Below, in pieces: positions 5,743 to 57,239 of a DNA stretch of 64,000 bases. Under the pieces are notes generated by a model, which was not told the origin of the DNA, did not search any database, and was given only the letters and a program-made list of their open reading frames with translations. The DNA comes from a virus (lineage: Duplodnaviria > Heunggongvirae > Uroviricota > Caudoviricetes), in the IMG/VR virus record IMGVR_UViG_3300032050_000069; one strand, 5' to 3'. Each line of letters begins with the position of its first letter. The stretch's first letter is position 1. Both the position numbers and the translations under genes were made by a program.

Positions 5743-7428
5743 ATGAAAAAAATCGTATTAGGGTTAATATTATTAGTATTAACTTCTCCACTTTTTGCAC
5801 AATTAACCGTTAATAGAACTATTTTACCGACAACTGGCCCATATAGAGTAGGTGATACTTTGACGGTAAAATATGTTATAGATAGAGGAGCTAATCCTGC
5901 AACTACTCCACGTTATTTTTGGTTAAGATACCAATATAGTAATAAGGCATTATTGCTATTACCAAATACTACAATTTATTCGCAGGGTAATTCAGTTCAA
6001 ACATATTCTACTGAATGGGCTAACTTTAAATTTACACCTAATACCGCTAATAGTTTAAGTGCAAATTCACTTTATGCACAATACCAATCATCACCTTGGA
6101 ATTTTGTAGCCAATACTAATTTTAATGTTGGGCAATTAACAATACAAAGAACTGATGCAAGTATTAGTGGTGAATTCGTATCTCAAAAATTTATTATTAA
6201 AGATAATGTATCCTACGAAGATATACATAATTTAATATTAGCATATTCAATAGATGCAAGTTCTGCTTATATATCTCCTATAACAACTACCGGAAATGTT
6301 ATATCGTTAGGTAATGTAGCAGGTGGTTCATCTTCTTTCAAAGTAAAGGTGGCATTCCCTTCTACATATACAACGATTACCGAACATAAAGTTCAGTTAA
6401 TGAAATTGAAAACTGATGGTAGTGGAGGAATAGATTGGTCACAACAACCAATTGCACAATTACCATTAGATGCGACAGGAGAAGCGACGTTTACAACACT
6501 TAAAATTGGTGATTCAGTTGGTGTATTTGTTGGCCCTACCCTTAACAAAACATTTATGAATAATATAGTAACGGTATCAGATGCGTATAAATCATTTTTA
6601 GCCGTTTCTCAAACAGATATAAATGGTAACCCAACATACTTTACTTATCCAAATTTGGAAAAAAATGTTGGAAACATTACTAAAACCGATAATGTATTTA
6701 ATGAATCAGATTCTTACTATATGTTTGCATATATAATGGGAATAAATGTAGATTCAAATGCTATGTTACCTTCAAGTACCGCAACTACTGTAAAATGGCA
6801 AAGTGGATTATTGAATCAAAGTTGGTTAAATGGAGTTCCGACAAATAAAGTATTAATTACATCTAACACTCAAACCGCTAACGCAGTATTTGCTTGGGGT
6901 GGTGATTTAAACTGGTCACACTCAACCGATCCGGCAGTTGTGGCACAAAATATAGCAAACAATACAAATGTAACTAATTCCTTAAACAAAACATCATTTG
7001 GTATTTCATCTATGGCTGTAAATTCAACAAGCAATGTTGGATTATATCAAACAAAAGAATACGAAAAAGCAACATTAAGTGTATCTTCTAAATTGGAAGG
7101 TGGTAAAGTAGTATTAACTACAAACTTAACAAAAGCGGATTTAGCAGGATTGGAAGTGATACTACAATATGATGAAACCAAATTATCGTTGGATAACATA
7201 GTATTTGATGCGGGTTCTACCATTACTAATTTTTCAACAAATAAAGATGGTAGATTAACATTTGGTTCTATTGACCAATTAAAAACTGCAAGAATTAAAA
7301 CTGGAACACCATACAAATTAATTTTTACACCAAAAACTAATTTAACAAATACAGCGGGATTATTCTACTTTGTATTATCAGATGCAGTAGATGCTGCTGG
7401 AAATAAGATAGATTTAATAGTAGAATAA
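5743..7428 (+). CDS. secreted large protein with cohesin-like C-terminal domain (possible virion or host-surface protein)
   Basis: Signal-peptide-like N-terminus MKKIVLGLILLVLTSPLFAQ. C-terminal segment LEVILQYDETKLSLDNIVFDAGSTITNFSTNKDGRLTF resembles cohesin domains and the C-terminus of the next ORF. Confidence 0.35.
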   Translation: MKKIVLGLILLVLTSPLFAQLTVNRTILPTTGPYRVGDTLTVKYVIDRGANPATTPRYFWLRYQYSNKALLLLPNTTIYSQGNSVQTYSTEWANFKFTPNTANSLSANSLYAQYQSSPWNFVANTNFNVGQLTIQRTDASISGEFVSQKFIIKDNVSYEDIHNLILAYSIDASSAYISPITTTGNVISLGNVAGGSSSFKVKVAFPSTYTTITEHKVQLMKLKTDGSGGIDWSQQPIAQLPLDATGEATFTTLKIGDSVGVFVGPTLNKTFMNNIVTVSDAYKSFLAVSQTDINGNPTYFTYPNLEKNVGNITKTDNVFNESDSYYMFAYIMGINVDSNAMLPSSTATTVKWQSGLLNQSWLNGVPTNKVLITSNTQTANAVFAWGGDLNWSHSTDPAVVAQNIANNTNVTNSLNKTSFGISSMAVNSTSNVGLYQTKEYEKATLSVSSKLEGGKVVLTTNLTKADLAGLEVILQYDETKLSLDNIVFDAGSTITNFSTNKDGRLTFGSIDQLKTARIKTGTPYKLIFTPKTNLTNTAGLFYFVLSDAVDAAGNKIDLIVE

Positions 7429-7429
7429 T

Positions 7430-9727
7430 ATGAAAAAACTATTTGTTACAACTATACTTTTATTAATTTCTTTTTTTGGGTTTGGGCAGTCAATAACGAC
7501 ACCCGAACCCAAAACATTTACACTTAATACTGCTGGACAAGATGCTAGTGGTTTTGTGTTAAGTGGATTTGGTGCAACCGAAACTCTATTAGTTGCAATC
7601 GGATTACCAACTGCACCAACCGGCACAACTTTTTATATGACCCGATTTGATGGTATGACACCAGCAACGGGTTTTAATTTTAGTGGTAATAAGACCCGTT
7701 TAGTTTTTACCGGAACAATGGAAGGCATTAACATCGCATTATCTACCTTAAAAATAAACACAACGGGAACTGCCGGTAACATACAAATATCTGTATCAGC
7801 AACCGTAAATCCTTCGGGTTATTTCTACAATCCAAACAATGGACACTTTTATAGACCAATATCAACGGGAGCAACTTATACAAATGCAAAAACATTATCA
7901 TCACAACAAACATTTAAAGGTCAAACTGGATATCTTGTAACAATAACTTCTGCGGATGAAGATGCTTTTATTTTTAATAATGTACCACAAAGTAATATAT
8001 GGTTTGCATTAACAGATGAAGTGACAGAAGCTCAATGGAAAATAGATGCGGGTCCTGAGGCTGGAACTCTTATCAAAACATCAAATGGACAAACCGCAGG
8101 AAACATACAAGGTCAATACAATAACTGGGCAGGTGGTGAACCAAATAACAGTGGTAACGAAGATTACGCTGTAACTAAATGGGGTGGTGGTTCTCAATGG
8201 AACGATTTACCAAACCATTTCAGTTGTGCTTATGTAATTGAATTTGGAACTTGGACAAATCCCGATGACCAGACATTTACTGAATTCGTTTCTAATAGTG
8301 TTATACATTCAAACGGAAACACATTAAGAGCACAATTCACATTTAATTTCGGAAGTAATATAGATGAAACTAAATTTAAATCAAAAATTATAACATCCAC
8401 CGATGATATAACATACAATACAAACAATGCTTTAGTTGCACTTAATGGTATTGGTAGAGTAGATTTAACATCACAAATAGATACCTCAACAATTGTAGGT
8501 AGTGGATTTAAAGCAACAATCAATCCAGGTCAGGTTGAGTATTCATATACAAATCCAAATGCAAGTTGGTTAGGTGGTAATTCTCGATTACTAATTGATA
8601 TGAGAACATTTGGTAGCACTGTTCCTTCAACAATTACAAATGTAAAAATATTTGATGCTTATGATGGACCGGTAACTTTTATAAGTAGTGATGCGGCTTG
8701 GGCTCAGTATAATGTTCCTTCACCACTTACAAAAATAACCGATGGAACATCTGCTTTTAACGCTAATATAAGAAATGTAAATGGATGGAATACCGATTAT
8801 GCTTTTACATCAAATCCAACATTTGGACAAAATCGAATAAACAAATACCATAAAATTTCTATGGAGATTACACAAAGTGATTTACTTACCTTATTGGGAA
8901 GTGTGATTACTGTTGGTGATGTTTATTTGGCATTTAAAGAATTTGCAGATAGGGGTATATTAGGAGATGAAAGTAAGTATTTTACTTCTGGTATTCAATT
9001 TCATAATGCGGATGTAAATGATGATGGGGTATTTGATGAGAGAGATTGTTACACATTATTAACACATTTGCAAGGCACAACTTCTTTATGGCCAAATCCA
9101 CCGGCATTAGGTGATATAATGAAGATTGTAACATCAACGGCGTATGATGGTATTACAAAACAAAATTGGAATACATACACAGGAATTACGAGATATAGAT
9201 ACCCATTCGCGTTTGCAAGTGGTATTCTAAATTCATATAATTTAGATGTTACTTGGAAGGGTGATGTAAACCTTTCTCATTCTTCTCAACCAACAGGATT
9301 TGTAACATCAGCAAATAGTTCAGTTTCAGAAATAAAATCTATGGCTGTATCATCTAATTCAATAGGAGATGTTGAAGCAGAAATTATGATGGAAAAAGTT
9401 GGTGATAGTGTTATTGCAACAATTGAATTAAATCCAAATGGTAATCAAATAGGAGCAACTCAATTTGATATGTTTTTTGATAATTCAGTATTAGAATTTA
9501 GTTCAATACAATTTAGTAATACCAATTCTACAAACTTCGGTAGGAATAACGGCTCAACCATCAGCATTGGTAGTTTAAATACCTCTGGTGGAACGATTTC
9601 TAATATAGGGTATAAAGTTACATTTAAACCAAAGACAACCGTTACAAACCTATTAGGATTGATTTCTGTAAAAAGTGTTGAAACTCTTAATACATCATTA
9701 AATAAAATAAATGTAAAAGTATTGTAA
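7430..9727 (+). CDS. secreted large protein with C-type-lectin-like domain, dockerin-like Ca-binding motif and cohesin-like C-terminal domain
   Basis: Signal peptide. WFALTDE...WKIDAG...NNWAGGEPNNSGNEDYAVTKWGGGSQWNDLPN carries the CTLD WIGL-like / GEPNN / WND motifs. DVNDDGVFDERDCYTLLTHL is dockerin-repeat-like. C-terminus is homologous to the C-terminus of the 5743 ORF. Confidence 0.45.
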   Translation: MKKLFVTTILLLISFFGFGQSITTPEPKTFTLNTAGQDASGFVLSGFGATETLLVAIGLPTAPTGTTFYMTRFDGMTPATGFNFSGNKTRLVFTGTMEGINIALSTLKINTTGTAGNIQISVSATVNPSGYFYNPNNGHFYRPISTGATYTNAKTLSSQQTFKGQTGYLVTITSADEDAFIFNNVPQSNIWFALTDEVTEAQWKIDAGPEAGTLIKTSNGQTAGNIQGQYNNWAGGEPNNSGNEDYAVTKWGGGSQWNDLPNHFSCAYVIEFGTWTNPDDQTFTEFVSNSVIHSNGNTLRAQFTFNFGSNIDETKFKSKIITSTDDITYNTNNALVALNGIGRVDLTSQIDTSTIVGSGFKATINPGQVEYSYTNPNASWLGGNSRLLIDMRTFGSTVPSTITNVKIFDAYDGPVTFISSDAAWAQYNVPSPLTKITDGTSAFNANIRNVNGWNTDYAFTSNPTFGQNRINKYHKISMEITQSDLLTLLGSVITVGDVYLAFKEFADRGILGDESKYFTSGIQFHNADVNDDGVFDERDCYTLLTHLQGTTSLWPNPPALGDIMKIVTSTAYDGITKQNWNTYTGITRYRYPFAFASGILNSYNLDVTWKGDVNLSHSSQPTGFVTSANSSVSEIKSMAVSSNSIGDVEAEIMMEKVGDSVIATIELNPNGNQIGATQFDMFFDNSVLEFSSIQFSNTNSTNFGRNNGSTISIGSLNTSGGTISNIGYKVTFKPKTTVTNLLGLISVKSVETLNTSLNKINVKVL

Positions 9728-10617
9728 TGAGAAAACTAATAATCATATTATCCTTACTTTGTATAACTTTTGTTTCAACCGCACAAATCCAAAAACCGGA
9801 TACATTACAATTATCTCCAAAAGAATTGTTTGGTGAAAGCGATGATTGGAACGATGTGGGTATATTACAATCTTATATTGATTTTTCAAAAGATGTTCTT
9901 TCATCATCAAACCTTTCAGTTGGTATAATTGGAAAGCAGGTATCCACAACTCTTAATTTAGGATATAGTAAATCATCTCTGAATGGTAAGTGGATACATT
10001 CATTCTCAACATCAATAAATCCTATATGGAAATACTACGGTGTTGGTTATGGTTTTAGTAGAAATACCGATAAGAGAACAACTACATTACAAACATTCTA
10101 TTCAACCGATTTTGATTTCCAAAAAGATATTAACTTTTCGTTTATAGATGTATTCAGAACTAAAAAGTGGGGAACATTTGGATATAGCTTAATAGCATCA
10201 AAAACATATTGGGATTCATATCAAGGTGAATGGGAAGGAAAATATACAGTAAATGCAAATGGTGATTTTTTAGATTTGATTTATCCCCAAATGCCAGCAT
10301 CATCCGAAACAACATATAAAGGGATGTTAATGTACACATATACAATTAAAACAAAAAGAGTTAATATATCACCACAAATATTTGCTATGAGTGATGTGTA
10401 TGTAGACTTTAAAGATGGTGAAACTGATTTTGGATATAAAAACGATTTTAATTTAGACCTGTATTATGGAACATCATTTGATTGGAAAATAACTAAAAGG
10501 TTTATATTAAACACCAATATAAGATATAATACAACTTGGGATAAATTAAGTGAATCAGTTGGGTTCAAAAAAAGTAACCCACTATTATTTATGATAGGAA
10601 CAAACTTTCAATTTTAG
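9727..10617 (+). CDS. secreted protein, possible outer-membrane beta-barrel
   Basis: Signal peptide MRKLIIILSLLCITFVSTAQ. Alternating hydrophobic pattern. C-terminal ...MIGTNFQF aromatic end as in OM beta-barrels. Confidence 0.3.
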   Translation: MRKLIIILSLLCITFVSTAQIQKPDTLQLSPKELFGESDDWNDVGILQSYIDFSKDVLSSSNLSVGIIGKQVSTTLNLGYSKSSLNGKWIHSFSTSINPIWKYYGVGYGFSRNTDKRTTTLQTFYSTDFDFQKDINFSFIDVFRTKKWGTFGYSLIASKTYWDSYQGEWEGKYTVNANGDFLDLIYPQMPASSETTYKGMLMYTYTIKTKRVNISPQIFAMSDVYVDFKDGETDFGYKNDFNLDLYYGTSFDWKITKRFILNTNIRYNTTWDKLSESVGFKKSNPLLFMIGTNFQF

Positions 10618-10620
10618 GAT

Positions 10621-10977
10621 ATGAAATGGAGTAAAATTATAATAATGTGTTGTATGGTTTTTATGATTTCTTGTTATAAAGAAGAAATAGAGCCAACTCC
10701 TCAGCCAAAACCTTTGGTAGATATTTTTACATATACTGAAACATCAGTAAATGATGGACAAGAAATTATGTTTAGATTAAATTCAGATAGTTTGTATATA
10801 ATAAAATTAATTGATAAACCAACGAATCAGGTGGTAAGTAAAGAAAAGATTTTTGGTAAAATTGGTGATAATAAAATAAAGATTTACACTAAAACCCTAC
10901 AAAGTAAATATTTATATTTGGTTTTGGAAAATGTTAATAGAAAAGAATTAAAAAAAACAACATTAATACTTAAATAA
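10621..10977 (+). CDS. small lipoprotein with T9SS-CTD-like C-terminal segment
   Basis: Lipobox-like ...MISCYKEE. C-terminal IIKLIDKPTNQVVSKEKIFGKIGDNKIKIYTKTLQSKYLYLVLEN resembles the Por secretion sorting domain pattern. Confidence 0.35.
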   Translation: MKWSKIIIMCCMVFMISCYKEEIEPTPQPKPLVDIFTYTETSVNDGQEIMFRLNSDSLYIIKLIDKPTNQVVSKEKIFGKIGDNKIKIYTKTLQSKYLYLVLENVNRKELKKTTLILK

Positions 10978-10978
10978 A

Positions 10979-11347
10979 ATGAAAAAACTATTTTTAATAG
11001 CAATTGTAACAATAACCTTAACCGGTTGTTTTAAAGAAGATTTGGTTAATCCAATCGTAAATGTTACACCAGATTTAAAAATAGAATCTACTGCTGGTAT
11101 CAAATTAGCATCATCCTTTGTAACCGATGAGGTAAGTATGAATGTAAAATTAGAATCAGCGGGGACTATTAATGTAAAGATTTTAGATATATCTAATAGA
11201 GTAGTATCAAAAGAAACTATGAATGTTAGTGCAGGTGATAATATATTAAAAGTATATACGAGAGCTTTACCATCATCAGCATATAGAATTGCATTATATA
11301 ATAGTAATAATGTATTAATTGGTATAACAGATTTTAACAAACTATAA
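10979..11347 (+). CDS. small lipoprotein with T9SS-CTD-like C-terminal segment (paralog of previous)
   Basis: LTGCFKED lipobox. C-terminal NVKILDISNRVVSKETMNVSAGDNILKVY...YRIALYN matches the T9SS CTD pattern. Confidence 0.35.
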   Translation: MKKLFLIAIVTITLTGCFKEDLVNPIVNVTPDLKIESTAGIKLASSFVTDEVSMNVKLESAGTINVKILDISNRVVSKETMNVSAGDNILKVYTRALPSSAYRIALYNSNNVLIGITDFNKL

Positions 11348-12681: not shown

Positions 12682-13512
12682 ATGTTATTAAAAAGAGGAG
12701 ATAACAACGAAAGTGTAAAACAATTGCAAACCAAATTAGGTTTAGAACCTATTGGTAATTTTGGGCCTAAAACTGAAGAAGCAGTAAAAGCATTTCAATT
12801 AAAAAATGGTTTGACAGCAGACGGTATTGTAGGTGATGGAACTTGGGCAAAAATAATGGGAGGTTCAGCACCTGCACCACAACCAGCTGCTCCGATAGTT
12901 CCTGTTGGTGGATTAAAATTGGATAAATTAAAAGGTAATATTCCTGATGCGGTAATTGCGATGATTCCCGATACGGCAGCTAAATTCCAAATTAATACTC
13001 CATTAAGATTGGCACACTTCTTAGCACAATGTGGGCATGAAAGTGGTGGATTTAGAGCAACACAGGAAAACTTAAACTATTCAGCTAAAGGATTGGCTGG
13101 TATATTTAGAAAGTATTTTCCAACTGAAGCTGCAGCAGCATCTTATGCTAGAAACCCACAAAAGATTGCCAACAAAGTATATGGTAATAGAATGGGTAAC
13201 GGACCTGAATCAAGTGGTGATGGCTACAAATTTAGAGGTAGAGGATATATCCAATTGACAGGTAAAGAAAACTATACTGCATTTGGTAAAGCAATTGGTG
13301 AAGATATATTAGCAAATCCTGATGTAGTGGCATCTAAATACGCATTATTATCAGCAGCTTGGTTCTTCTCTAAAAACGGATTACATAAGATGGCAGATGG
13401 TGGAGCAACTGATGCGGTAGTAACATCAATTACTAAAAGAGTAAATGGAGGAACGATTGGATTGGCAGATAGAATAAAACATTTTAAAGAATATTATCAT
13501 CTATTAGCATAA
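12682..13512 (+). CDS. endolysin: N-terminal peptidoglycan-binding domain plus GH19 (chitinase/lysozyme-like) catalytic domain
   Basis: LQTKLGLEPIGNFGPKTEEAVKAFQLKNGLTADGIVGDGTW is a PG_binding_1 repeat. AHFLAQCGHESGGF and GRGYIQLTG are GH19 signatures. Confidence 0.7.
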   Translation: MLLKRGDNNESVKQLQTKLGLEPIGNFGPKTEEAVKAFQLKNGLTADGIVGDGTWAKIMGGSAPAPQPAAPIVPVGGLKLDKLKGNIPDAVIAMIPDTAAKFQINTPLRLAHFLAQCGHESGGFRATQENLNYSAKGLAGIFRKYFPTEAAAASYARNPQKIANKVYGNRMGNGPESSGDGYKFRGRGYIQLTGKENYTAFGKAIGEDILANPDVVASKYALLSAAWFFSKNGLHKMADGGATDAVVTSITKRVNGGTIGLADRIKHFKEYYHLLA

Positions 13513-13575: not shown

Positions 13576-14298
13576 ATGAAAAAATTATTCGTATTATTAA
13601 GTTTCTTTTTGTTAAGCAGTGTTGCGGTTGTTGCTCAAACAATAGGAAGCACTAAAACAGAACAATATAAAGCATCCTTTGAAACCGCGATAGATATAGA
13701 AAGATTTTTAGATTATGATGGACCACAAATCCCAATTCAAATTCTAAAAGCCGGTATTAGTGATGAGATGTATGAGATGTATCCTGAATTAAAAGAAAAA
13801 AGGGTAGGTTTGGGTGTTGCTAACATTTCGATGGAATATTTGGAAAACCTTAATCGTTTCAAATTTACCGAAGATAAAACGGAAATTAAGAATAGAATGG
13901 TTAAGCAATTCCAAGCATCGCAAGCTGGCATTTCCGAAAACAAATTAGATGGTAGAGGAAAGATTAACTTAGCAAAATACTTTGTAACAATCGAATGTTA
14001 CGATTATTCGGTATCCGAAGATGAAACTGTAAACCTTAAAGATGGTGTTAAAAACCTTATGGTAACTCGTATCGGTTTGCAAGTTAGATTTACCGATGCA
14101 GAAACAGGTGTAGTATTTGGAGCAAGTGGTTTGGGAGAAGCAAAAACTACTAGAGAATTAACTCTTTTATCAGATGCAACTGTTGATGAAGTTAAATTCA
14201 ATCAATCAACTATATCTATTGCTACTAAAAAAGCATTGGATATTGCGTGTGCTAGAATTTTAGATAGAATGATTAAAAAAGGTATATTCACAAACTAA
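13576..14298 (+). CDS. secreted hypothetical protein (possible periplasmic/OM lysis accessory)
   Basis: Signal peptide MKKLFVLLSFFLLSSVAVVAQ. 240 aa. Position after the lysis genes. Confidence 0.3.
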   Translation: MKKLFVLLSFFLLSSVAVVAQTIGSTKTEQYKASFETAIDIERFLDYDGPQIPIQILKAGISDEMYEMYPELKEKRVGLGVANISMEYLENLNRFKFTEDKTEIKNRMVKQFQASQAGISENKLDGRGKINLAKYFVTIECYDYSVSEDETVNLKDGVKNLMVTRIGLQVRFTDAETGVVFGASGLGEAKTTRELTLLSDATVDEVKFNQSTISIATKKALDIACARILDRMIKKGIFTN

Positions 14299-14303: not shown

Positions 14304-14636
14304 ATGATTAAGTTAAAAGATTTATTGAACGAAGCGAAAGTTAAAACTCCAACCGAAATCGTTACATCCGTTCCTGCGACGGCAATCCCTCAGACTAATA
14401 TAGCCAGAGCAGAGGTTATGTTAGGATTACACATGGGTGGTGTATTAGGTAGGGGAACACTAACTGTTAGAGATTATTCATTGGGCTATTCTGAAGGCAA
14501 GGTTGCGTTGAAACTAACCCGAAATGGAATAATGGCAGTACGGGTTAGAAGTGAAAAAGATCCTGATTATGTGAACCAAATTAAAAAGGTTGCCGATGCT
14601 TTCTTAATTGACTACGTCAAGCAAATAAAAAAGTGA
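14304..14636 (+). CDS. MIKLKDLL-family protein, paralog 1
   Basis: N-terminus MIKLKDLLNEA shared with the next three ORFs and the ORF at 34044. Confidence 0.4.
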   Translation: MIKLKDLLNEAKVKTPTEIVTSVPATAIPQTNIARAEVMLGLHMGGVLGRGTLTVRDYSLGYSEGKVALKLTRNGIMAVRVRSEKDPDYVNQIKKVADAFLIDYVKQIKK

Positions 14637-15034
14637 TTAGATTAAAAGATATATTAAGAGAATCAAAACTTTACTCATTTACCGGAGCTAGTGGCAAACA
14701 GGTTAAACATAAGCACATGTGCCATAAGGTTGCTCGACAAAAATACTTTCAATTAAAAAAGAAAGGAAAAAATATCAAATATATTGAAGGAGAAGTTTAT
14801 GTTCCTTTAGAAGATGGAAAATATAAATGGGTTGAGCATGCATGGAATTTAATTGATGGTAAGCCTGTTGATTTTGCATACGGTGAGAATAATTACAAAT
14901 ATAAAGGGCGTGTTATTAAAGATGACTATATGAATATGTTACCTAAGTGGATGCATACTTTTTTAGGGCCAGAAGATATATGCGATGTGAATATCAGAGT
15001 TGGTGATGAATATGGAAATAAAGCATACGAATAG
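14633..15034 (+). CDS. MIRLKDIL-family protein, paralog 2 (GTG start overlapping previous stop)
   Basis: GTGA overlap with the upstream stop. N-terminus (M)IRLKDILRES. Confidence 0.4.
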   Translation: MIRLKDILRESKLYSFTGASGKQVKHKHMCHKVARQKYFQLKKKGKNIKYIEGEVYVPLEDGKYKWVEHAWNLIDGKPVDFAYGENNYKYKGRVIKDDYMNMLPKWMHTFLGPEDICDVNIRVGDEYGNKAYE

Positions 15035-15035
15035 A

Positions 15036-15584
15036 ATGATACGATTAAAAGATATACTTTCAGAAGTAGATAAGCGATTTGAGATACCACAAAATAAGTG
15101 GACTCCAATAATGCGTTCAGAACTACCCCGTTTCAAAAGAATTATATTTGATTTGATTTCAACTGCGTATCAACCAATTGGAGGACACTCTAATGTGAAA
15201 GATAAAGAAGACCTACCGGATGAGGGTGATTTCTTTGATGTGATAGATGTAGATGGTGATGATGAGATAGATGCAGCTACAATAGCAAAATATAAACCAG
15301 CCGGTAAGAAGTTTGTTGCATTGGGACATGATGGTTCTTCGGCAGGTAAATCGGCAGCAGTAAATCATCAGGTAGATAAATTAAAGAGTGGTGGATACTA
15401 TGTAGAAGTATCCGGTAAAATGAGAGATATATTTATGGGTAAAGGATTGGTGCCTGTTACCGATGAAGATGTTGTTCGCAAGGCCTTAAAAGGAAAAGAA
15501 CTTAAATGGAACGGAGATGGTTCATACGATAGAAAAATCGGTGGAACTATACACACTAAAATGATGTTTGGAAAACCAAGATGA
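15036..15584 (+). CDS. MIRLKDIL-family protein, paralog 3
   Basis: ATG at 15036 directly after the upstream TAG. N-terminus MIRLKDILSEV. ORF-track start 15000 is an upstream in-frame extension. Confidence 0.4.
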   Translation: MIRLKDILSEVDKRFEIPQNKWTPIMRSELPRFKRIIFDLISTAYQPIGGHSNVKDKEDLPDEGDFFDVIDVDGDDEIDAATIAKYKPAGKKFVALGHDGSSAGKSAAVNHQVDKLKSGGYYVEVSGKMRDIFMGKGLVPVTDEDVVRKALKGKELKWNGDGSYDRKIGGTIHTKMMFGKPR

Positions 15585-16150
15585 TAAAATTAGGTAACAT
15601 ATTAAACGAAGGTGTACGAAATCCCGCTAATATAAAAGCGTATTATGAGGCATTGTGTAAAAACGAAAAAGTAACTCCTTTGCCTGTAAAGTTTGGAAAT
15701 GTTGGTAAGGGTGGAGCAGCATTAACGTTCAATCCCAAAACAATGAAACCCCTTTACATTTCATTTGATGTAAATAGAATGATGGATCCTGAGCAAGCGG
15801 TTATACATGAATTGACACATCAGATAAAATTAGAAACTGAAAAGGATGCTTATATTGGAAAGAGAGACCAAACTGCTAAATTTAAGAAATTAGAAAATCG
15901 TTTGTTTGAAAAATATGCATATTCGAAATTTTCTAGCATTCTTTGGAAAGAAAGTAAAGCAATAGATGAAAAGTTATCAGTAGCAGGTTCAGCAGCAAGA
16001 AATATAATTAATACTATATTACCTAAAACAACTTTCGCTAAGGGAGATGAGAAATCACAATCAGACCATCAGAAAATGATTAATGATTTGGTGAAAATTC
16101 TTAATAATTTTTATAAGAAATATAACATAGATAAAACAATAGATTTATAA
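15581..16150 (+). CDS. MIKLGNIL-family protein, paralog 4, with HExxH motif
   Basis: ATGA overlap. N-terminus MIKLGNILNEG. Internal VIHELTHQI (HExxH). Confidence 0.4.
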   Translation: MIKLGNILNEGVRNPANIKAYYEALCKNEKVTPLPVKFGNVGKGGAALTFNPKTMKPLYISFDVNRMMDPEQAVIHELTHQIKLETEKDAYIGKRDQTAKFKKLENRLFEKYAYSKFSSILWKESKAIDEKLSVAGSAARNIINTILPKTTFAKGDEKSQSDHQKMINDLVKILNNFYKKYNIDKTIDL

Positions 16151-16231: not shown

Positions 16232-18709
16232 ATGAATCGTTTCTTTTTATTGTTGTTACTATTGCCAAATTTATTATTTTCGCAGGTAACAATCAAAGGT
16301 GTTACAAAATCCAAATCGGAAACACTTTATTTCTCCCACATTTCTTTTAAAAACCCAAATAGTGATGTTTTTACAACAATTTCAGACACCGAAGGAAAAT
16401 ACTCTATTGTATTAAAAGAAGGTAAGTATCAAATCAAATCTTCATTCGTTGGATATAAGGAATATACAAATGAGGTGGTGTTTGATAGAGATACTGAATT
16501 TGATATATTATTTCCAGATGATGCCAAACAATTATCCGAAGTTGTCGTAAGAAGTGTTTCTCAAAAGGTAACGGAAGCGGCAGTAGTAAGAACAATACGA
16601 AATAGTAATGTAGTATCGGATGGGTTATCAATTGATTTTATTAAAAAAACACCCGATAGAAATGTGGGCGATGCACTTAAAAGAGTAAGTGGGGTTACGA
16701 TACAAAACGATAAGTTTGTATTAGTAAGAGGATTAGCGGATAGATATAATTCAGCTCTACTTAACAAAACCCAACTACCATCAACCGAACCTGATAGAAG
16801 AGCATTTTCATTTGATATAATACCAACATCTCTAATAGATAACATCATAGTTTCTAAATCAGCATCAGCAAATCAACCAGGCGATTGGGCAGGTGGATTA
16901 GTCCAAATAACTACAAAAGAAGTATCTGATAACTTTTTTAATATATCTTTGGGAAGTGGTTGGGGTTCGGTTTCAACTTTGAGAGATTTCAAGTTAGTTC
17001 AACCTACCGATTTCCCCTCCACATTCCCTTCCACTTACAAATACCGAATAAGTAGTAATGGTGATAAAAGAGCTTACACTAAACTACTTACCAATCCCTC
17101 TACCGATGAATTACAATCTATTCCAAACTTAAATGGTGGATTATCATTTGGATATACAAAAGGTAAATGGAATTCATTATTTAGTTCCACAATACGAAAT
17201 GGATTTACAATAAATAATATTGATAGAAAAGATTATCAATCATCAAGTGAATTGGCGTATAATTACAAAGATGTTTTATTTACAAAAAGATTTTCCACAA
17301 ATGGTTTATTTAATTTCACTTATTTAGGTGAAAATCGATATAGTTGGAAAACATTAGTGAACTACCAAAAGGATGATACATACTTAACCCGTAATGGTGA
17401 TAACTTTGATAATGTTCAGAATGTTTTATCTACTGCATCAAATCACATTAATAATTTAGTAATTAGTTCTCAATTTGATGGTAAAATCGAAACATTAGAT
17501 TTCAATTTAGGATACACATACACTTTTAGAGAGCAACCTGATTATCGAATAAACCCAATTACAAAATCATTAGGAGTAAACGAACCATACCAAACTGCAT
17601 GGAGAGATACCTATCGTTTTTGGAGTGTGATGGATGAGAACTCTTTTAATGGTAATATAAACAAACAAATAGGAGATATAAAAATAGGTGGTGGCTATCT
17701 AAAAAGAATTAGAGGATTTAATGCTAGAATATTCCGTAATCTATCGACTGATATGTTAGATGAGATTACAAACAACACCGATAGATACACAGCCGATTTT
17801 GATTTGGGTTCTCTTTATACAATGTATGATACTGAATTTGGTAAATGGAAACTAAACACCGGATTAAGAGGTGAGTATAACCTATTCAATGTATCAACCG
17901 CAGATTTTAGTGGTCAAAAGGTAAATGTAGATAGAAAATATTTGGATATATTACCATCGCTAAATCTTTCATACAACGAAGAAAAAACAAAGTATAGATT
18001 TTCATTAAGTAAAACATTAGCAAGACCGGAGTTTAGAGAAGTAGCTAATTTTGCTTATTATGATTTCGTTAGAAACGCACAAATATTAGGAAACTCAAAG
18101 TTAGAAAAATCTGACATATATAATGTAGACCTTAAATACGAATGGTATCCAAAGGTGGGTGAGAACATTTCACTTTCTCTATTTGGTAAGAACTTTATCA
18201 AACCAATTGAACAAATCGTAGCAGATGGTTCAGTTCCATCAAACTTATTATTGACTTATACAAACCCTAATTCAGCTATCCTATATGGTGTTGAATTGGA
18301 AGTTCGTAAAAAAATAAACGATTGGTTTGATTTTTACACAAACGCTTCGGTAATGAATTCAGAAGTAGAAGTGAATGGTGTGAAAAGACAATTGCAGGGA
18401 CAATCAAACTATGTGTTAAATAGTGGAGTAAACATTCATAAAAAGAAAAATACTATTAACATAACTTACAATAGAGTTGGCGATAGAATTTCAGCAGTAG
18501 GGTTTCAGGGTTACCCAAACATCTTTGAAAATAGTAGAGATGTATTAGATTTAACCTTTTTACATAAACTTCCAAAAGGAGAAATAAAACTGGCAATAGG
18601 TGATGTATTTGCGCAACCATCGATTTATTACCAAAAGTTACAAAACCGAAATCTAATAAAAACAAACAACGAACAAACAATTTCTTTAACATTAAATTTG
18701 AATTTATGA
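16232..18709 (+). CDS. TonB-dependent receptor-like outer-membrane protein (SusC/RagA-like) with N-terminal carboxypeptidase-regulatory-like domain
   Basis: Signal peptide. ...GVTKSKSETLYFSHISF...TDTEGKYSI matches CarbopepD_reg-like. ...DRNVGDALKRVSGVTIQ...VRGLADRYNSALLNKTQLP is the TonB plug signature. 825 aa. Confidence 0.55.
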   Translation: MNRFFLLLLLLPNLLFSQVTIKGVTKSKSETLYFSHISFKNPNSDVFTTISDTEGKYSIVLKEGKYQIKSSFVGYKEYTNEVVFDRDTEFDILFPDDAKQLSEVVVRSVSQKVTEAAVVRTIRNSNVVSDGLSIDFIKKTPDRNVGDALKRVSGVTIQNDKFVLVRGLADRYNSALLNKTQLPSTEPDRRAFSFDIIPTSLIDNIIVSKSASANQPGDWAGGLVQITTKEVSDNFFNISLGSGWGSVSTLRDFKLVQPTDFPSTFPSTYKYRISSNGDKRAYTKLLTNPSTDELQSIPNLNGGLSFGYTKGKWNSLFSSTIRNGFTINNIDRKDYQSSSELAYNYKDVLFTKRFSTNGLFNFTYLGENRYSWKTLVNYQKDDTYLTRNGDNFDNVQNVLSTASNHINNLVISSQFDGKIETLDFNLGYTYTFREQPDYRINPITKSLGVNEPYQTAWRDTYRFWSVMDENSFNGNINKQIGDIKIGGGYLKRIRGFNARIFRNLSTDMLDEITNNTDRYTADFDLGSLYTMYDTEFGKWKLNTGLRGEYNLFNVSTADFSGQKVNVDRKYLDILPSLNLSYNEEKTKYRFSLSKTLARPEFREVANFAYYDFVRNAQILGNSKLEKSDIYNVDLKYEWYPKVGENISLSLFGKNFIKPIEQIVADGSVPSNLLLTYTNPNSAILYGVELEVRKKINDWFDFYTNASVMNSEVEVNGVKRQLQGQSNYVLNSGVNIHKKKNTINITYNRVGDRISAVGFQGYPNIFENSRDVLDLTFLHKLPKGEIKLAIGDVFAQPSIYYQKLQNRNLIKTNNEQTISLTLNLNL

Positions 18710-24009: not shown

Positions 24010-24663
24010 ATGAAAAAGTACTTGAACATTAAAAATATCGCTATTGCGGTTTTAGTAATTATCATCTTATTACAATTTATCAACCCAAATGGAATTATAC
24101 CGGGTAGAACAATTAAAATAGATGGAAAGAAATACGAAGTTGTGAAACATGAAATTGATACTGTGGAAGTTGAGAAAGTAAAAGTTGTAACTAAACAAGG
24201 TAAAGACATTGTGCATGAAGTTGTGGATGTTGATACATTAGTTTTAAAAGAACTACAATCAGTTGATAGTTTGGCAATCCTTAAAGACTATTTAGCAAAA
24301 GTAACTTACAAAGATGTATTAGTATTGCCTGATTCATTAGGAACTGTGGCGGTAACTGATATAATCCATAAAAACCGAATCGAAAGTAGAACCTTTGATG
24401 CGAAAGTAAAGGAAAGAACAATAAAAGAAACTACAATTGTTAAGGAATTACCAAAGAACCAATTATATTTTGGATTTGATGGCGGATTTAACAAAGCAGA
24501 TGTTGTATCACATATTGGAACAGGATTGGTTCTTAAAACTAAAAAAGATAAATTGTATCAGTTAGGAGTAGGTGTGGCAAATAGAACAATCGATGGAACA
24601 AATGGTTCTTTATCACCATATATTGGAGCCGGAGTTTATTGGAAGATTAAATTAAAAAAATAA
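24010..24663 (+). CDS. membrane-anchored hypothetical protein
   Basis: N-terminal TM helix IAIAVLVIIILLQFI. 217 aa. Confidence 0.3.
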   Translation: MKKYLNIKNIAIAVLVIIILLQFINPNGIIPGRTIKIDGKKYEVVKHEIDTVEVEKVKVVTKQGKDIVHEVVDVDTLVLKELQSVDSLAILKDYLAKVTYKDVLVLPDSLGTVAVTDIIHKNRIESRTFDAKVKERTIKETTIVKELPKNQLYFGFDGGFNKADVVSHIGTGLVLKTKKDKLYQLGVGVANRTIDGTNGSLSPYIGAGVYWKIKLKK

Positions 24664-34043: not shown

Positions 34044-34547
34044 ATGATACGATTAAAAAGCATATTAAAAGAAGGAAATGCCGATACTGCTATGGTAAAT
34101 GGCGTTGCTGACATTTTAACTAAAGTGGATGATAAAGAAAATCGTAAAGATATAGCAAATCAAATGATGGATAAATTCGATTTAGAAGATGTTGAATTTG
34201 ATAAAGATTCATTTCTTAAATTAAGTGGTATAAACGAAGGTGGGTATCCAGAAGACCTTTCATTCGAAGAATTTGCAGCAAAAAGATTAGAAGGAGCAAC
34301 TAAAATTTCAGGTGATGCGAAAGAAAAGGGTGGAGCCGCTCTACTAACATATCACCACTTTGTAGTTAAACTACCATACTATAAAAAAGCATCGGAAGGT
34401 AGCTTTAATTTAGATGAAGCCCAAATCGAATTAAAAAAATATTTGGATGAATTATGTAGCGTTTCCGATGATATGGGGCCGATTCATTTCCAAAGATTAG
34501 TTGGTCTAATTGAAGTATTAGGTGAATTAATCATTAAATTTAAATAG
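34044..34547 (+). CDS. MIRLKSIL-family protein, dispersed paralog 5
   Basis: N-terminus MIRLKSILKEGNAD matches the 14304-16150 array. Confidence 0.4.
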   Translation: MIRLKSILKEGNADTAMVNGVADILTKVDDKENRKDIANQMMDKFDLEDVEFDKDSFLKLSGINEGGYPEDLSFEEFAAKRLEGATKISGDAKEKGGAALLTYHHFVVKLPYYKKASEGSFNLDEAQIELKKYLDELCSVSDDMGPIHFQRLVGLIEVLGELIIKFK

Positions 34548-35144: not shown

Positions 35145-36164
35145 ATGAGAGAGATAATTTGTGCAGGGTGTTCCTTCACTAATTTTAATACTCTTAATGA
35201 GGATATGGTTTTAAATGGGATGACACCTGATATAGATGGTGTATCTCCATTAGGTTCGTATCCGGAAGCAATTCATCGTAATTATAGAAATAAAGTATAT
35301 AATGCGGGAATGGCTGGTAATAATATATCTACTTCGGTATTATCTATATTATCGATTGCAGATAGATTACTAAAAGAAGGTAAGAAAATTTCTATTATCT
35401 TACAATGCACCGAATTCACAAGAAAATCACATTATTTTCCAACCTCTTTTCAGATTATTAAAAACATTGCAAGTGATAATAGTTCAGTTCGCAATAATAA
35501 TTATTTATTTGATGGAAGTGAAAACGGATTTTTTCAATTCGGAACATTAAGTGACGTATCGCCAAATTTTTCAACAAATAAAAATTTAGTAGAGATAGCG
35601 AAAAGTATCGGAGAAAATTTGTTTAGCATTGAATCAACTTATATAGATTCAATTATACACATATTATTACTACAAAATTATTGTAAGGCTAACAAAATAC
35701 CATATAAAGTATTTTGCAAAACTGAATCATTTAGTTTGCCATTTGCCCCTCTATTCTATATTGATGATACAACAATAGATTCACAATTTAGATCTATTTT
35801 TATTAATAAACAATTTGCCACTAAAAAAAGATTATCGTTTGTAAATTCGGATCCATATATTAAGAATTTATTTGGATTATTGGATTTAGATAATTTTTGG
35901 TTTTTAGATGATGAAAATTGTAAATATGGTGGAATAACGGAATGGGTTTATCTGAAAAACATTTATAGAAATGGTGATAGTGAATATACACCATTAGTGG
36001 TTGAGGATATAGATGGAACTCCTACCCAAATAAAACCTATGTATCCAATAGAAAGAGTATTTGAGAAATTAGAAAACAATACATTCAATCCAAATGGCCA
36101 TCCCTCTTATTTTTATTGGGATTATTTTGTAAAATCTGAAATCGTAAAATGGGAAATATTATAA
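35145..36164 (+). CDS. SGNH/GDSL-like hydrolase family paralog
   Basis: MREIICAGCSFTNF N-terminal block of the paralog family. Confidence 0.35.
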   Translation: MREIICAGCSFTNFNTLNEDMVLNGMTPDIDGVSPLGSYPEAIHRNYRNKVYNAGMAGNNISTSVLSILSIADRLLKEGKKISIILQCTEFTRKSHYFPTSFQIIKNIASDNSSVRNNNYLFDGSENGFFQFGTLSDVSPNFSTNKNLVEIAKSIGENLFSIESTYIDSIIHILLLQNYCKANKIPYKVFCKTESFSLPFAPLFYIDDTTIDSQFRSIFINKQFATKKRLSFVNSDPYIKNLFGLLDLDNFWFLDDENCKYGGITEWVYLKNIYRNGDSEYTPLVVEDIDGTPTQIKPMYPIERVFEKLENNTFNPNGHPSYFYWDYFVKSEIVKWEIL

Positions 36165-37342
36165 ACATATATCCAATAGATTTTGATGAAAATGCAAATG
36201 GTAAATTTGTAAAGACAACCGATTTTAAAGATAAAGATTGGGTGTTAGGCAACATTTATTGGTATCCATTTTTAGAAAAGATATACAACTTTACATTTAA
36301 TTATTCCGAAGATAATACCATATTGTTTCTTACATATAATGGTATGGCCGAATCATTAATTTCTGAAAGGCAATGGTTTTTAGATGTTAAGAGGCAATTA
36401 GATAGTGGTAATTATAAAAAGGTTGTAGTTTATCAAAATGAAGTAAATTGGGATACTTTTCATAAAATACTGGAAATAGAAGATTTTTTTTACGAAATTT
36501 TTGGAGATGATGAAAGATTTGTATTTGTTAGAAACATTTTCAAATCTAGATTTAACTTCACTAAAATAAATGCTACATATACATTTGGATGTTTTCCATT
36601 TCAATTATTCCATAACTATTCGGAAACTTTAGATTTTAATTATGAGATAGAAAAGCAGTTTCATTTATTTTCAGCAAATTGTAATGTAAAAGAAGAAAGA
36701 CTCCATTTTTATCAATTTTTACAAAAGGGGAATTATTGGGATAAAGTAAATACATCGTTTTTTCTTCCATTATATAATAGGAATAAAAAAAGGTTTGAAA
36801 TTTCAGATTTTGTAAATGAAAAATTTTTACATGCAAATACCGGAAATACGAACTCTTTTGTTTCTCATTTGGGAGAATTGGATTTAAGTATTGGGTATCA
36901 TCCCAAAAAATTAAAATATGATGATTTCAATCAAGTAAAAAACTTAGCATTAAATGATAGTGTTGAATCTTTATTTCAAGTAATTTTTGAAACCCGTTAT
37001 CATTCTCCTTGTGGCATTGTATTAAGTGAAAAGATTTTTAAGGGTTTTTGTTACAAGTCTCCATTTATAGTTTTTGCTCAATATGGTGTAATTAAATTAC
37101 TCAAAGAATTTGGGTTTAAAACATTTGATTGGTTGGTAGATGAGAGTTATGATAATGAATTGGATGATAAGAAAAGATTTGAAATGGTTTTAGCGGAAAC
37201 TAAAAAATTATTAGATACACCATTCGATGAACTTAAATCTAAAATAGAAAAAAATTATGATGTATTAGAGCATAATCATAAAATGGTAAATGAATTTGCC
37301 TTATCAGAAATAGATAAAATATATAAATTATTCGATGTATAA
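36149..37342 (+). CDS. putative glycosyltransferase, GT10 fucosyltransferase-like (paralog of 40707..41933)
   Basis: FQVIFETRYHSPCGIVLSEKIFKG resembles the GT10 FxxxFEN(S/T)...(T/S)EK motif. C-terminal ~120 aa alignable with the 40707 ORF. Confidence 0.35.
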   Translation: MGNIINIYPIDFDENANGKFVKTTDFKDKDWVLGNIYWYPFLEKIYNFTFNYSEDNTILFLTYNGMAESLISERQWFLDVKRQLDSGNYKKVVVYQNEVNWDTFHKILEIEDFFYEIFGDDERFVFVRNIFKSRFNFTKINATYTFGCFPFQLFHNYSETLDFNYEIEKQFHLFSANCNVKEERLHFYQFLQKGNYWDKVNTSFFLPLYNRNKKRFEISDFVNEKFLHANTGNTNSFVSHLGELDLSIGYHPKKLKYDDFNQVKNLALNDSVESLFQVIFETRYHSPCGIVLSEKIFKGFCYKSPFIVFAQYGVIKLLKEFGFKTFDWLVDESYDNELDDKKRFEMVLAETKKLLDTPFDELKSKIEKNYDVLEHNHKMVNEFALSEIDKIYKLFDV

Positions 37343-38573
37343 TAAAGAAACATTTTGTGTGATGCCGTTTATGCACTTTTCCGTTTTTCAGGATGGAAAG
37401 GTAAAGCCGTGTTGTATGGCAAGTGATTTCTTTGAAGAGAACTTTAATGATTATGTTGATTTTGAACAATTTTATAAAAACGAATCTTATGAAAAATTAA
37501 GAGAGGATTTAAAAAGTGGAATAAAGAATAAGATATGTGATGCCTGTTGGAAAACCGAAGAAAGAGGTGGGAGAAGTTTTAGGCAAGAAAAGAATACACA
37601 TTTTCAAAAACAATATGATAAACTTATAAAAGGTGAATCTGATAAAAACGAATTGGTATTTTTAGATGTAAGATTTTCTAATCAATGTAATTTTAAATGC
37701 CGAATGTGTGGAGAGAGGGATTCTACAAGTTGGTATGATGAAAGAGCTGAGTATTGGGAAAAGGAAGTTGTAGATCCTGTGAGAGAAAAACTTAAACAAT
37801 GGAAATTAGACCACAGAGTATATGAACACATTGCTCCATTTAATAAAAAGAAACTTCACATTCTTAAAAATGATTTTAATAAAGAAGAATTAGAGCATTT
37901 GGAATATGTTTATTTAGCAGGAGGAGAACCATTGTACACAAGAAAAGTATGGGATTTCATAGAAATTATACCACATCCTAAAAATGTGACACTACAATTT
38001 CAAACAAACTTTTCTATATTAGAATACAAAGATACTTCTATTTTTGAATTCACAAAAGGATTTAAAAATGTAGTTTATTCTATATCATTAGATGGATTGT
38101 TTGAGACGGGGGAATTTCAAAGAACTAATTTTAAAACACAAAACTTCTTATCTAATCTAAAAAAATTAAACGAAGAGGTAAAGAATAATCCTAACATTAG
38201 CTATGATTTTACCTTTACCGCAACTTTATTAAATGTATTTCAATTTTTTGAAACCTATGATTACCTAATTGATAATGGGTATATAGCAGATTATTCTAAC
38301 ATTAGATTACAAATAGTAAGTTGGCCGAAACATTTAGATGCTAAAAACTTTGGATTAGAAGCTGAAATAGAAGAGTATTTTAGTAGAACTGAAATAAAAG
38401 GAGTTGAAAAGAATCCTTATTTATTGGGAGATATAAAAAATTACTTATTACATATTAAACAAGGGATAGAGGGTGATAAAGAAGAACACTTAACAAATCT
38501 AAAAAATTACTTAAATTGGTCTTCACTTTACAATAACCTACCGATACCAAAACATTTACATAAATTTTTATAA
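37335..38573 (+). CDS. radical SAM enzyme, paralog of 2977..4236
   Basis: CNFKCRMCG (CxxxCxxC), YLAGGEPLY, N-terminal CVMPFMHF...KPCC. Confidence 0.6.
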   Translation: MYNKETFCVMPFMHFSVFQDGKVKPCCMASDFFEENFNDYVDFEQFYKNESYEKLREDLKSGIKNKICDACWKTEERGGRSFRQEKNTHFQKQYDKLIKGESDKNELVFLDVRFSNQCNFKCRMCGERDSTSWYDERAEYWEKEVVDPVREKLKQWKLDHRVYEHIAPFNKKKLHILKNDFNKEELEHLEYVYLAGGEPLYTRKVWDFIEIIPHPKNVTLQFQTNFSILEYKDTSIFEFTKGFKNVVYSISLDGLFETGEFQRTNFKTQNFLSNLKKLNEEVKNNPNISYDFTFTATLLNVFQFFETYDYLIDNGYIADYSNIRLQIVSWPKHLDAKNFGLEAEIEEYFSRTEIKGVEKNPYLLGDIKNYLLHIKQGIEGDKEEHLTNLKNYLNWSSLYNNLPIPKHLHKFL

Positions 38574-38575
38574 CT

Positions 38576-38980: not shown

Positions 38981-38993
38981 AATATATATCATT

Positions 38994-40705: not shown

Positions 40706-40706
40706 T

Positions 40707-49283: not shown

Positions 49284-50129
49284 ATGGAATTACTTAAAGA
49301 GTTTAAGAATATTGTAGATGAAGTGGCTTTATTAGAGGCTGAACTTTTAGAGCAGTTAGTATTGGAGGGAGTTGATGATCCTGGTATACTTAAATGTATC
49401 TTTATGGCAGGTGGACCTGGTAGTGGTAAATCATTTGTAGCACAAGAAATTTTTGGAATAGATAAAAATCTTCGAACATCAGTTGCGGCATCCGGTCTTA
49501 AAGTAGTCAATTCAGACCCTGCATTTGAAGCCCAACTTAAAAAGCATGGAATTAATCCAAAAGATTTAGCAAAAATAGAAAAGGAAGAACCCGAATTATG
49601 GGATTTTATTACAAAGAATCCACAAGGGCCAAGAGAAACCGCTAAAAAACAAGTAGCTAAATTTAAGGAATTTTATGAAGCCGGTAGATTGGGTATGATT
49701 ATCGATGGAACTGGTGACAACTATGATAAAGTTGCAAGACAAAAGAAAGAAGCAGAAGCATTAGGATATGATACCTATATGGTATTCGTAAATACATCAT
49801 TAGAAGTAGCTCTTATTAGAAATTCAGAAAGAGGTAGAACTTTGGGTGAGGAATTAGTAACTCAAAGTTGGAAAGAGTGCCAGGAAAATTTAGGTAAGTT
49901 TCAACAATTATTCGGAGGTGGTAATAAATTTATGATTGTTGATAATACTGAATATAAAAAAGGTAACTACACTTTCAAACATAAGAAAACTGGAAAAACA
50001 GTAGCAGCGGCTAAACCATTACAACCAGAGGTTAGAAAGGCTATTGATACATTTTTAAGATTACCAATTTACAATCCCATCGGAAAAAAATGGATAGAGG
50101 GAGCAAGATTAATAAAGAAATATTTTTAA
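49284..50129 (+). CDS. P-loop NTPase, nucleotide/nucleoside-monophosphate-kinase-like
   Basis: FMAGGPGSGKSF Walker A. 281 aa. Confidence 0.45.
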   Translation: MELLKEFKNIVDEVALLEAELLEQLVLEGVDDPGILKCIFMAGGPGSGKSFVAQEIFGIDKNLRTSVAASGLKVVNSDPAFEAQLKKHGINPKDLAKIEKEEPELWDFITKNPQGPRETAKKQVAKFKEFYEAGRLGMIIDGTGDNYDKVARQKKEAEALGYDTYMVFVNTSLEVALIRNSERGRTLGEELVTQSWKECQENLGKFQQLFGGGNKFMIVDNTEYKKGNYTFKHKKTGKTVAAAKPLQPEVRKAIDTFLRLPIYNPIGKKWIEGARLIKKYF

Positions 50130-57054: not shown

Positions 57055-57126
57055 GTTGGTGTGGCGCAGTGGTAGCGCAGTAGACTGTTAATCTATTGGT
57101 CGTAGGTTCGAATCCTACCATCAACG
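57055..57126 (+). tRNA. tRNA-Asn (anticodon GTT)
   Basis: Cloverleaf folded by hand: acceptor gttggtg/catcaac, D GCGC-agtggta-GCGC, anticodon stem gtaga/tctat loop ctGTTaa, T gtagg-ttcgaat-cctac. Confidence 0.7.
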
Positions 57127-57231: not shown

Positions 57232-57239
57232 CAATTTAT

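Follow-up and report, generated by a model that had tools for sequence, protein, structure and literature searches.

In phage T4, the first 10 residues of the internal protein IPIII suffice for packaging, and within this capsid-targeting sequence (CTS) residues 4 and 7 mainly govern targeting, while residues 8 and 10 govern processing (PMC9026906). The T4 protease gp21 cleaves after L/I-x-E (PMC9026906), and the internal-protein loci of T-even phages have been described as hyperplastic regions (PMC3012670). Here we describe a short N-terminal peptide common to five open reading frames (ORFs) in a 64-kb (64,000-nucleotide) stretch of Caudoviricetes DNA (IMG/VR record IMGVR_UViG_3300032050_000069), which is referred to as the window throughout. 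Four of the ORFs lie head to tail on the plus strand at 14304-16150, the fifth is located apart from them at 34044, and all begin with the consensus M-I-[RK]-L-x-x-[IL]-L-x-E. We propose, with a probability of about 70%, that this decapeptide (hereafter the tag) is a T4-type capsid-targeting propeptide that is cleaved after Glu10 by a protease of the gp21 family. A capsid-targeting or propeptide function like that in T4 internal proteins was the leading idea of an earlier annotation of the window (the original prediction), and it is supported by the analysis presented here.

The N-termini of all five proteins and the junctions within the four-gene array (GTGA, TAGAATG and ATGA) were confirmed by direct reading, in agreement with the originally predicted shared N-terminal peptide on otherwise divergent proteins (Table 1). 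A search for further MIRLKDIL genes in all six frames of the window, using the pattern [MVL]I[RK]L..[IL]L.E, returned exactly five matches, every one at a start codon, and no further copies of the tag were found on the parent contigs in the 10 kb flanking the window on either side. The only columns without variation among the five proteins are I2, L4, L8 and E10, and position 7 is occupied by I or L. Conservation stops at residue 10, past which the five proteins do not align. All five tags have in common with a CTS the place at the extreme N-terminus, the length of about 10 residues, the four positions mapped in T4 (here L4, [IL]7, L8 and E10) and the attachment to unrelated carrier proteins. 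Because no alignment was obtained outside the decapeptide and the folds differ, the term paralogs used in the original prediction is wrong, and the five are unrelated proteins that share one tag. For gene 3, the ORF list gives a TTG start at 15000, while metagenome gene callers give the 182-residue ATG form (15036).

Table 1. Tagged genes and related features. Positions are those of the window unless a locus is named; arrows follow glutamate residues proposed as cleavage positions; aa, amino acids.
Feature	Location	Strand	Length (aa)	N-terminal tag or leader	Remarks
Tagged gene 1	14304..14636	+	110	MIKLKDLLNE↓A (14304-14333)	Read from sequence
Tagged gene 2	14633..15034	+	133	(M)IRLKDILRE↓S	GTG start overlaps gene 1 stop codon
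Tagged gene 3	15036..15584	+	182	MIRLKDILSE↓V	Tag, then flexible linker and globular GNAT-fold domain
Tagged gene 4	15581..16150	+	189	MIKLGNILNE↓G	Tag, then SprT/Wss1-like minimal zincin, then C-terminal helical domain
Tagged gene 5	34044..34547	+	167	MIRLKSILKE↓G	Cargo family conserved across clade
Conserved upstream anchor gene	13576..14298	+	240	Untagged	Signal peptide; edge of variable region holding the array
Endolysin (PG_binding_1 + GH19)	12682..13512	+			Two genes upstream of the array
P-loop kinase (Zeta_toxin/AAA_33-like)	49284..50129	+		MELLKEFKNIVDE↓VALLE↓AELLSE↓	Possible sixth leader-bearing gene; different 24-aa N-terminal extension
Class B leader, immuto gp083	L060:11675-12139			MKKQILSEQF(R/K)RMQ(K/F)LAGIITE↓S	
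Class B leader, immuto gp230	L058:25061-25456			Same pattern as gp083	

Sequence searches of the five tagged proteins against Pfam, PHROGs and the PDB returned nothing significant, and the portions behind the tag (cargo) of genes 14304, 14633 and 34044 belong to no family recognisable in these resources. The cargo of gene 15036 has a GNAT alpha/beta fold of the acyltransferase/acetyltransferase type, and that of gene 15581 has a SprT/Wss1-like zincin fold. The HExxH motif that had been claimed for one member was found in the latter protein at residues 76-80, within IHELTHQI, with H76, E77 and H80 invariant in 30 homologs. In the AlphaFold2 model, the tag is predicted to form a helix that is detached from the fold and carried on a disordered linker. 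If both were packaged, an acetyltransferase and a protease would parallel Alt and the anti-restriction protein IPI of T4. Gene 34044 adjoins a ferredoxin-like gene, as does its homolog gp082 in Flavobacterium phage vB_FspM_immuto (hereafter immuto), which starts with MRLLELLRE↓A, and other tagged homologs are encoded between the terminase and portal genes in three metagenomic loci (L006, L009 and L025). The homolog of the GNAT cargo in phage pT24 starts with MVNISEYLEE↓K. Two further immuto proteins, gp231 (MIKLIDLLTE↓S) and gp093 (MISIYNILKE↓V), begin with comparable peptides.

Pieces of the cargo recur in other combinations. The C-terminal 60 residues of the gene 15581 product occur elsewhere as an independent tagged mini-gene of 74 codons (P0269; loci L073, L074, L075 and L098, at about 7720 in L074 and L075), and part of another protein (P0242) matches the N-terminal part of the gene 34044 product. 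Therefore, cargo pieces are shuffled among tagged genes. The kinase encoded at 49284 is 44% identical (E 8e-63) to a protein of locus L028 that bears MIRLKDILFE, with homology only from residue 25 on. Its N-terminal extension contains several hydrophobic-x-E sites and is possibly a leader as well.

To follow the tag beyond the window, IMG/VR was scanned with a back-translated DNA pattern of MIRLKDILxE. The pattern matched at 50 loci, in most cases directly after an in-frame stop codon, and the tagged proteins are many and different (55-473 amino acids), encoded on contigs of 6-221 kb with a guanine-plus-cytosine (GC) content of 30-45%. The identical decapeptide precedes, among others, a DnaJ J-domain protein, a Zeta_toxin/AAA_33 P-loop kinase, a VanY peptidase and another HExxH protein. 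The same pattern was matched only 13 times in 596 Gb of bacterial and archaeal genomes; 10 of these matches are internal to ORFs (e.g., of SMC proteins), and the three at ORF starts all come from metagenome-assembled genomes and may represent mis-binned phage DNA. The occurrence of the tag is far above chance and, with 50 loci in IMG/VR against three N-terminal matches in cellular genomes, we conclude that it is a phage feature.

All genes of the window lie on one strand, with a GC content of about 32% and 22 tRNA genes, and include an endolysin gene, radical-SAM and sugar-modification genes and genes for many exported proteins. Proteins encoded in the window were also found on a 288,575-bp contig in the ENA (ERZ27280291 k141_965817) and in freshwater samples of the Joint Genome Institute. 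No GenBank phage was matched by the array region in a megablast search. Immuto, a 160-kb myovirus, has homologs of about 11 window genes (33-68% amino acid identity). Judged by these sequences, the window belongs to an uncultured freshwater jumbo phage whose relatives include immuto and a large clade of freshwater phages with T4-like heads.

This relationship links the tag to a gp21-type protease. Immuto encodes a T4-like head module consisting of terminase, gp20-like portal, prohead serine protease (gp070), scaffold and gp23-like capsid protein, and the same module (Pfam Portal_T4, Peptidase_S77, Gp23 and gp13) is present in related metagenomic jumbo genomes of 216-234 kb. The protease of the clade is 36% identical to that of T4 (E 1e-24), with the motifs of the catalytic His and Ser (LGELxHP and SSRGLGS) conserved, and the capsid protein is 33% identical to its T4 counterpart (E 5e-29). 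PF03420, the gp21 family, was assigned to all listed homologs of a related protease (120 listed of 7,994). In at least 27 of the 50 IMG/VR tag loci, a tagged gene is located inside a T4-like head module, and one tagged family (MIRLKDILKE↓TEEYQQMPTELKKHFLEIISTYG..., 140-175 amino acids) is always encoded between protease and scaffold; many relatives carry an identical tag on a protein at this position. Both settings occur together on the 238,219-bp contig IMGVR_UViG_3300021962_000021, a close relative from the lineage of the window. A homolog of the anchor gene 13576 (95% identity) is followed there directly by a tagged gene of 67 codons (L075), and about 130 kb away on the same contig the protease gene is found with genes for a tagged core protein (MIKLKNILRE↓T...) and the scaffold (L362). 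The search for a prohead protease was therefore successful in relatives, including this contig with tagged genes; the protease of the window's own contig was not retrieved.

Several further genes were observed in or near head modules of this group. A gene for ribosomal protein S21 is located between protease and scaffold in related jumbo phages (L150:11653-11838; L167:12184-12411, Mel-JY01), and at L045:6192-6809 an ORF of 205 codons, by eye resembling a GIY-YIG homing endonuclease in its N-terminal motif, stands between the genes for prohead protease and tagged core protein. Homologs of the membrane-anchored protein encoded at 24010-24663 in the window lie directly upstream of the large terminase gene in L027, L006, L009, L150 and L151. 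As a marker of an adjacent terminase, however, gene 24010 was rejected: the rule is true in other lineages and not in the window, where unrelated genes follow, and the head module is therefore separated from gene 24010 in this genome.

The tag is one of several leaders that alternate on homologous cargo. A homology search with the GNAT cargo of gene 15036 listed 120 proteins (48-92% identity), among which 112 full-length members were analyzed. In 110 of the 112, the conserved domain is immediately preceded by a hydrophobic-hydrophobic-x-E site that falls within the first 24 residues. The leaders themselves differ: 66 members carry M-I-[RK]-L-x-x-ΦΦ-x-E (Φ, hydrophobic), 30 a 9-mer (MKLLKILxE), 6 MKSLYELYLE, a few an 18-mer ending in IIKE, and one MRADNRMLELAGLITE (...LELAGLITE). 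The zincin domain of the 15581 type behaves similarly. It occurs without a leader in small Bacteroides phages and in metagenome homologs of roughly 105-115 amino acids, is tagged in the clade described here, follows a leader of the form ...SKLAGINLLTE in one homolog (P0258), and is also embedded in multi-domain proteins of 0.8-1.9 thousand amino acids that start with another leader, MNELSxFLV[DE]xILxE. From these comparisons, the leaders appear modular, with homologous cargo behind interchangeable leaders, and the tag is a portable module. The large zincin proteins (P0246, P0247, P0254, P0259, P0261 and P0262) combine cytidylyltransferase-like, AAA_33 kinase, HD, poly(A)-polymerase-head, DUF5661 and Hint/intein-like domains. 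They resemble polyvalent injected proteins, and all of them bear this third type of leader.

Another leader, which we call class B, resembles the scaffold protein. The scaffold proteins of the clade all end, directly before the stop codon, in ...(D/N)RFKKLAGI(I/L)K, with immuto ending in ...SEQVSRWQKLAGIIK, and the class B pattern M..(Q)(I/F)L.E.F.RMQKLAGIITE↓ is a near copy of the last 15 residues of the scaffold. When the last 15 residues of the immuto scaffold were compared with all 48,016 15-mers of the immuto ORFs, the N-termini of gp083 and gp230 agreed at 11 and 10 of 15 positions, and the next best match at 6 of 15, which makes the likeness of class B to the scaffold highly specific. 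A scan of IMG/VR for KLAGIITE found at least 120 loci (L168-L287) with very diverse cargo. Among the matches listed, 116 of 135 have the motif at a distance of 5-19 residues from the first Met, and 112 of the 120 listed loci have genes in common with immuto; one match is on a contig of the window's lineage (L228, the same as L144). We found no mention of the class B leader in the literature that was searched. Since class B replaces the decapeptide on homologous cargo, the two presumably serve one function.

In length and register, the decapeptide corresponds to the final ten residues of class B, MQKLAGIITE. A position-specific scoring matrix built from 46 decapeptide tags did not place the scaffold end among its top matches in immuto; therefore, we hold the likeness between decapeptide and scaffold at the level of the pattern, as a hypothesis. 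It is tempting, though rather doubtful, to regard the leaders of this phage supergroup as an address code derived from scaffold termini, in which class B would dock cargo at the site that the scaffold occupies in the procapsid and this motif would be reduced to its minimum in the decapeptide (M-x-[KR]-L-x-x-I-[IL]-x-E). If so, an uncultured and abundant clade with T4-like heads would have a programmable, cleavable, encapsulin-like system of cargo loading, with dozens of enzyme families packaged for injection, including multi-domain proteins of 800-1900 amino acids. If the tag is a CTS, the scaffold-mimic leader offers a concrete and testable hypothesis for how such tags are recognized.

As a capsid-targeting propeptide, the tag would act as follows. 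Late in infection, the tagged proteins would be drawn into the core of the assembling prohead by their short N-terminal amphipathic helix, with L4 and I/L7 as the key residues. Once the shell is closed, a serine protease of the gp21 family would cut after Glu10 at (I/L)-x-E and thereby free the mature enzyme within the head, from which it would be ejected with the DNA into the next host cell. Many unrelated cargo proteins have received the tag, and the genomic setting of the four-gene array, an accessory region that changes fast, resembles that of the internal-protein genes in T-even phages.

A number of points weigh against this proposal. We found nothing usable in the literature on the motif or on the proteomics of immuto, pT24 and Mel-JY01, and we infer packaging, cleavage after Glu10 and ejection of the tagged proteins. 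The (I/L)-x-E site is short and frequent by chance. The tag has no sequence similarity to MKTYQEFIAE of T4 beyond the pattern x3-hydrophobic-x2-hydrophobic-hydrophobic-x-E; because a CTS is defined by function, a CTS-like mechanism survives such dissimilarity. Some of the cargo, e.g., the VanY peptidoglycan peptidase, is not an obvious head-internal protein, and the annotation of the GNAT cargo homolog in pT24 reads hypothetical and not virion structural. Finally, for the 288,575-bp contig to which the window belongs, the prohead protease is neither among the 120 listed of 7,994 homologs nor among the members of 10 protease clusters.

The conserved segment could also have its origin in the DNA. 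A nucleotide-level element copied with each gene, be it a region for translation initiation or a 5' coding stretch that is A/T-rich and unstructured, would suit Bacteroidota-type genes without Shine-Dalgarno sites, and the codons of the tag are A/T-rich. However, the five window copies write the residues of the tag with varied codons (ATT/ATA, AGA/CGA, AAG/AAA, TTG/TTA/CTT), and the DNA 5' of their start codons is unrelated. Across 40 distinct contexts from IMG/VR, Arg3 is encoded by six codons (AGA, CGA, CGT, CGC, CGG and AGG), Leu4 and Leu8 use both Leu codon families, and no base is conserved in the 30 nucleotides upstream of the tag start; further, Glu10 and the hydrophobic pattern are retained on contigs spanning 30-45% GC. 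Judged by this codon usage, selection acts on the tag peptide and not on the DNA. Because synonymous codons vary and the upstream DNA is not conserved, we exclude the duplicated start region that the original prediction had allowed for, and consider an element of this type very improbable in general. The other alternative raised there, a secretion or export signal (Sec, Tat, lipoprotein or type IX secretion system), would agree with the N-terminal place of the tag and with the many neighbor genes that encode exported proteins. It does not fit the residues: the tag has no hydrophobic h-region, which would span at least about 7-15 residues behind a basic n-region, and places K/R, D/N and E within 10 residues, whereas the neighbors show classical signal peptides, e.g., MKKLFVLLSFFLLSSVAVVAQ. 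Moreover, the tag is virtually absent from cellular genomes, and signals of the type IX secretion system are C-terminal. We therefore give export almost no credence.

Two further explanations accept the peptide as the conserved unit. The decapeptide could be a docking or regulatory tag unrelated to head loading, directing its carriers to another virion part, a phage-made compartment or a chaperone, or serving as an N-terminal degron that times their removal. Such a role would be in line with a peptide-conserved and portable tag whose location in the head we infer, and the VanY peptidase and the J-domain protein could act in the producing cell. It leaves unexplained, however, why a gp21 cleavage motif stands at exactly positions 8-10, why throughout the clade a protein with the identical tag is encoded between protease and scaffold, and why an interchangeable leader class copies the C-terminus of the scaffold, and we regard it as unlikely. 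Alternatively, the tag could be no more than a protease-removable pro-sequence that keeps potentially toxic enzymes inactive in the manner of a zymogen and has no role in targeting. The protease-type site that ends the leader in 110 of 112 GNAT-family homologs and the presence of a protease, a zeta-toxin-like kinase and an acetyltransferase among the cargo could be read in this way. Yet a helix of 10 residues, predicted to sit on a disordered linker and detached from the fold, would be unlikely to inhibit unrelated folds, and positions 2-7, which are distant from the scissile bond, are conserved, pointing to a role in binding as in T4. A pure zymogen function thus appears quite improbable to us.

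The surroundings of the array differ widely among relatives. Gene 14304 starts 5 nucleotides past the stop codon of the anchor gene 13576, for which IMG/VR holds 539 relatives, and 80 of these loci were fetched. In almost all of them the gene downstream of the anchor differs widely. A homolog of an array gene was found at only one of the 80 anchor loci (L106, 84% identity to the 15581 protein), which has two tagged genes; therefore, the array was rejected as a conserved operon. Four anchor loci carry an unrelated tagged mini-gene of 67 codons at the same spot, and in another (L115) a tagged gene follows at a distance of about 4.7 kb. From the variable content after the anchor, we conclude that the array was assembled recently, within a hyperplastic region. 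The 10-kb flanks on both sides of the window contain auxiliary genes only and no head module.

Other regions of the window were also noted. The segments 16232-18709 and 5743-11347 encode an outer-membrane beta-barrel similar to TonB-dependent receptors (CarboxypepD_reg, Plug and OMP_b-brl_3 domains, with a signal peptide) and a run of exported proteins and lipoproteins, which is unusual for a virus. The 22 tRNA genes are located at 57055-61482, interspersed with small ORFs, and cover 19 amino acids (all but methionine's partners single; Arg and Leu doubled). The region 35145-43348 has the lowest GC content of the window (about 25-31%) and contains a run of mid-sized ORFs that by eye looks like an acquired island for sugar or surface modification. 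Genes for GroES/GroEL and UvdE follow just downstream of the window (L064:16356-20617).

If the tag is indeed a CTS, the T4-style packaging of anti-host proteins would not be a peculiarity of T-even phages but a modular system in general use among freshwater and marine phages with T4-like heads, an uncultured clade that is abundant worldwide. A simple sequence rule would then predict the injected proteome from metagenomes and provide a source of candidate effectors for anti-defense and host takeover, such as the GNAT protein, SprT/ArdC-like protease, zeta-toxin-like kinase, J-domain protein and large multi-domain proteins (0.8-1.9 thousand amino acids). Additionally, short cleavable loading peptides would be useful for the packaging of foreign proteins in phage capsids.

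Among described systems, the CTS of the T4 internal proteins IPI, IPII and IPIII is the closest in design. In both cases an N-terminal peptide of about 10 residues precedes otherwise unrelated proteins, positions 4 and 7 are hydrophobic, positions 8-10 read (I/L)-x-E, and a gp21-family protease is present in the lineage. The gene order is also comparable: in T4 (NC_000866), ipIII and ipII stand in tandem behind the endolysin gene e, and in the window the tandem array stands in a variable region two genes past an endolysin gene. The systems differ in the peptide (MIRLKDILxE in the window type and MKTYQEFIAE in T4) and in the phages, which are Bacteroidota-type freshwater jumbo phages on the one hand and enterobacterial T-even phages on the other. 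Further, the predicted cargo of the window clade is much broader and largely enzymatic, with several classes of leaders. N-termini read from NC_000866 are MAKINELLRE↓S for gp24, MELITELFDE↓D for Alt, MKTYQEFIAE↓A for IPII and IPIII, and MKTFKEFTSTTTPVSTITE↓A for IPI. At residue level the decapeptides of gp24 and Alt are the closest match, and tagged gene 2 shares with gp24 the ending ..L.RES. Alt, a packaged and injected enzyme that modifies the host, may be regarded as a functional parallel to the tagged GNAT protein and zincin, whereas gp24 is a vertex protein of the shell and not cargo, and neither is homologous to the tagged proteins past the peptide.

In phiKZ-like giant phages (phiKZ, 201phi2-1 and SPN3US), a diverged gp21-like protease cuts after Glu and thereby frees many head-internal proteins (PMC9026906). 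The phiKZ-type propeptides are long, do not share a decapeptide and follow the motif S/A/G-x-E, whereas P3 in the window tags (two residues before Glu10) is always I or L, and the head genes of the window clade are much closer to those of T4. In encapsulins, which load cargo through short peptides, and in phage scaffolds with a coat-binding C-terminus, such as that of P22, a short peptide at one end of the cargo or scaffold protein binds to the inside of an HK97-fold shell. One leader class of the clade, as a near copy of the last 15 residues of the scaffold, may be analogous to these. The encapsulin peptides are usually C-terminal and not cleaved, while the leader described here is N-terminal. 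The kind of system is therefore known, and what is new is the sequence of the tag, the clade in which it occurs, the breadth of its cargo and the coexistence with a leader that mimics the scaffold.

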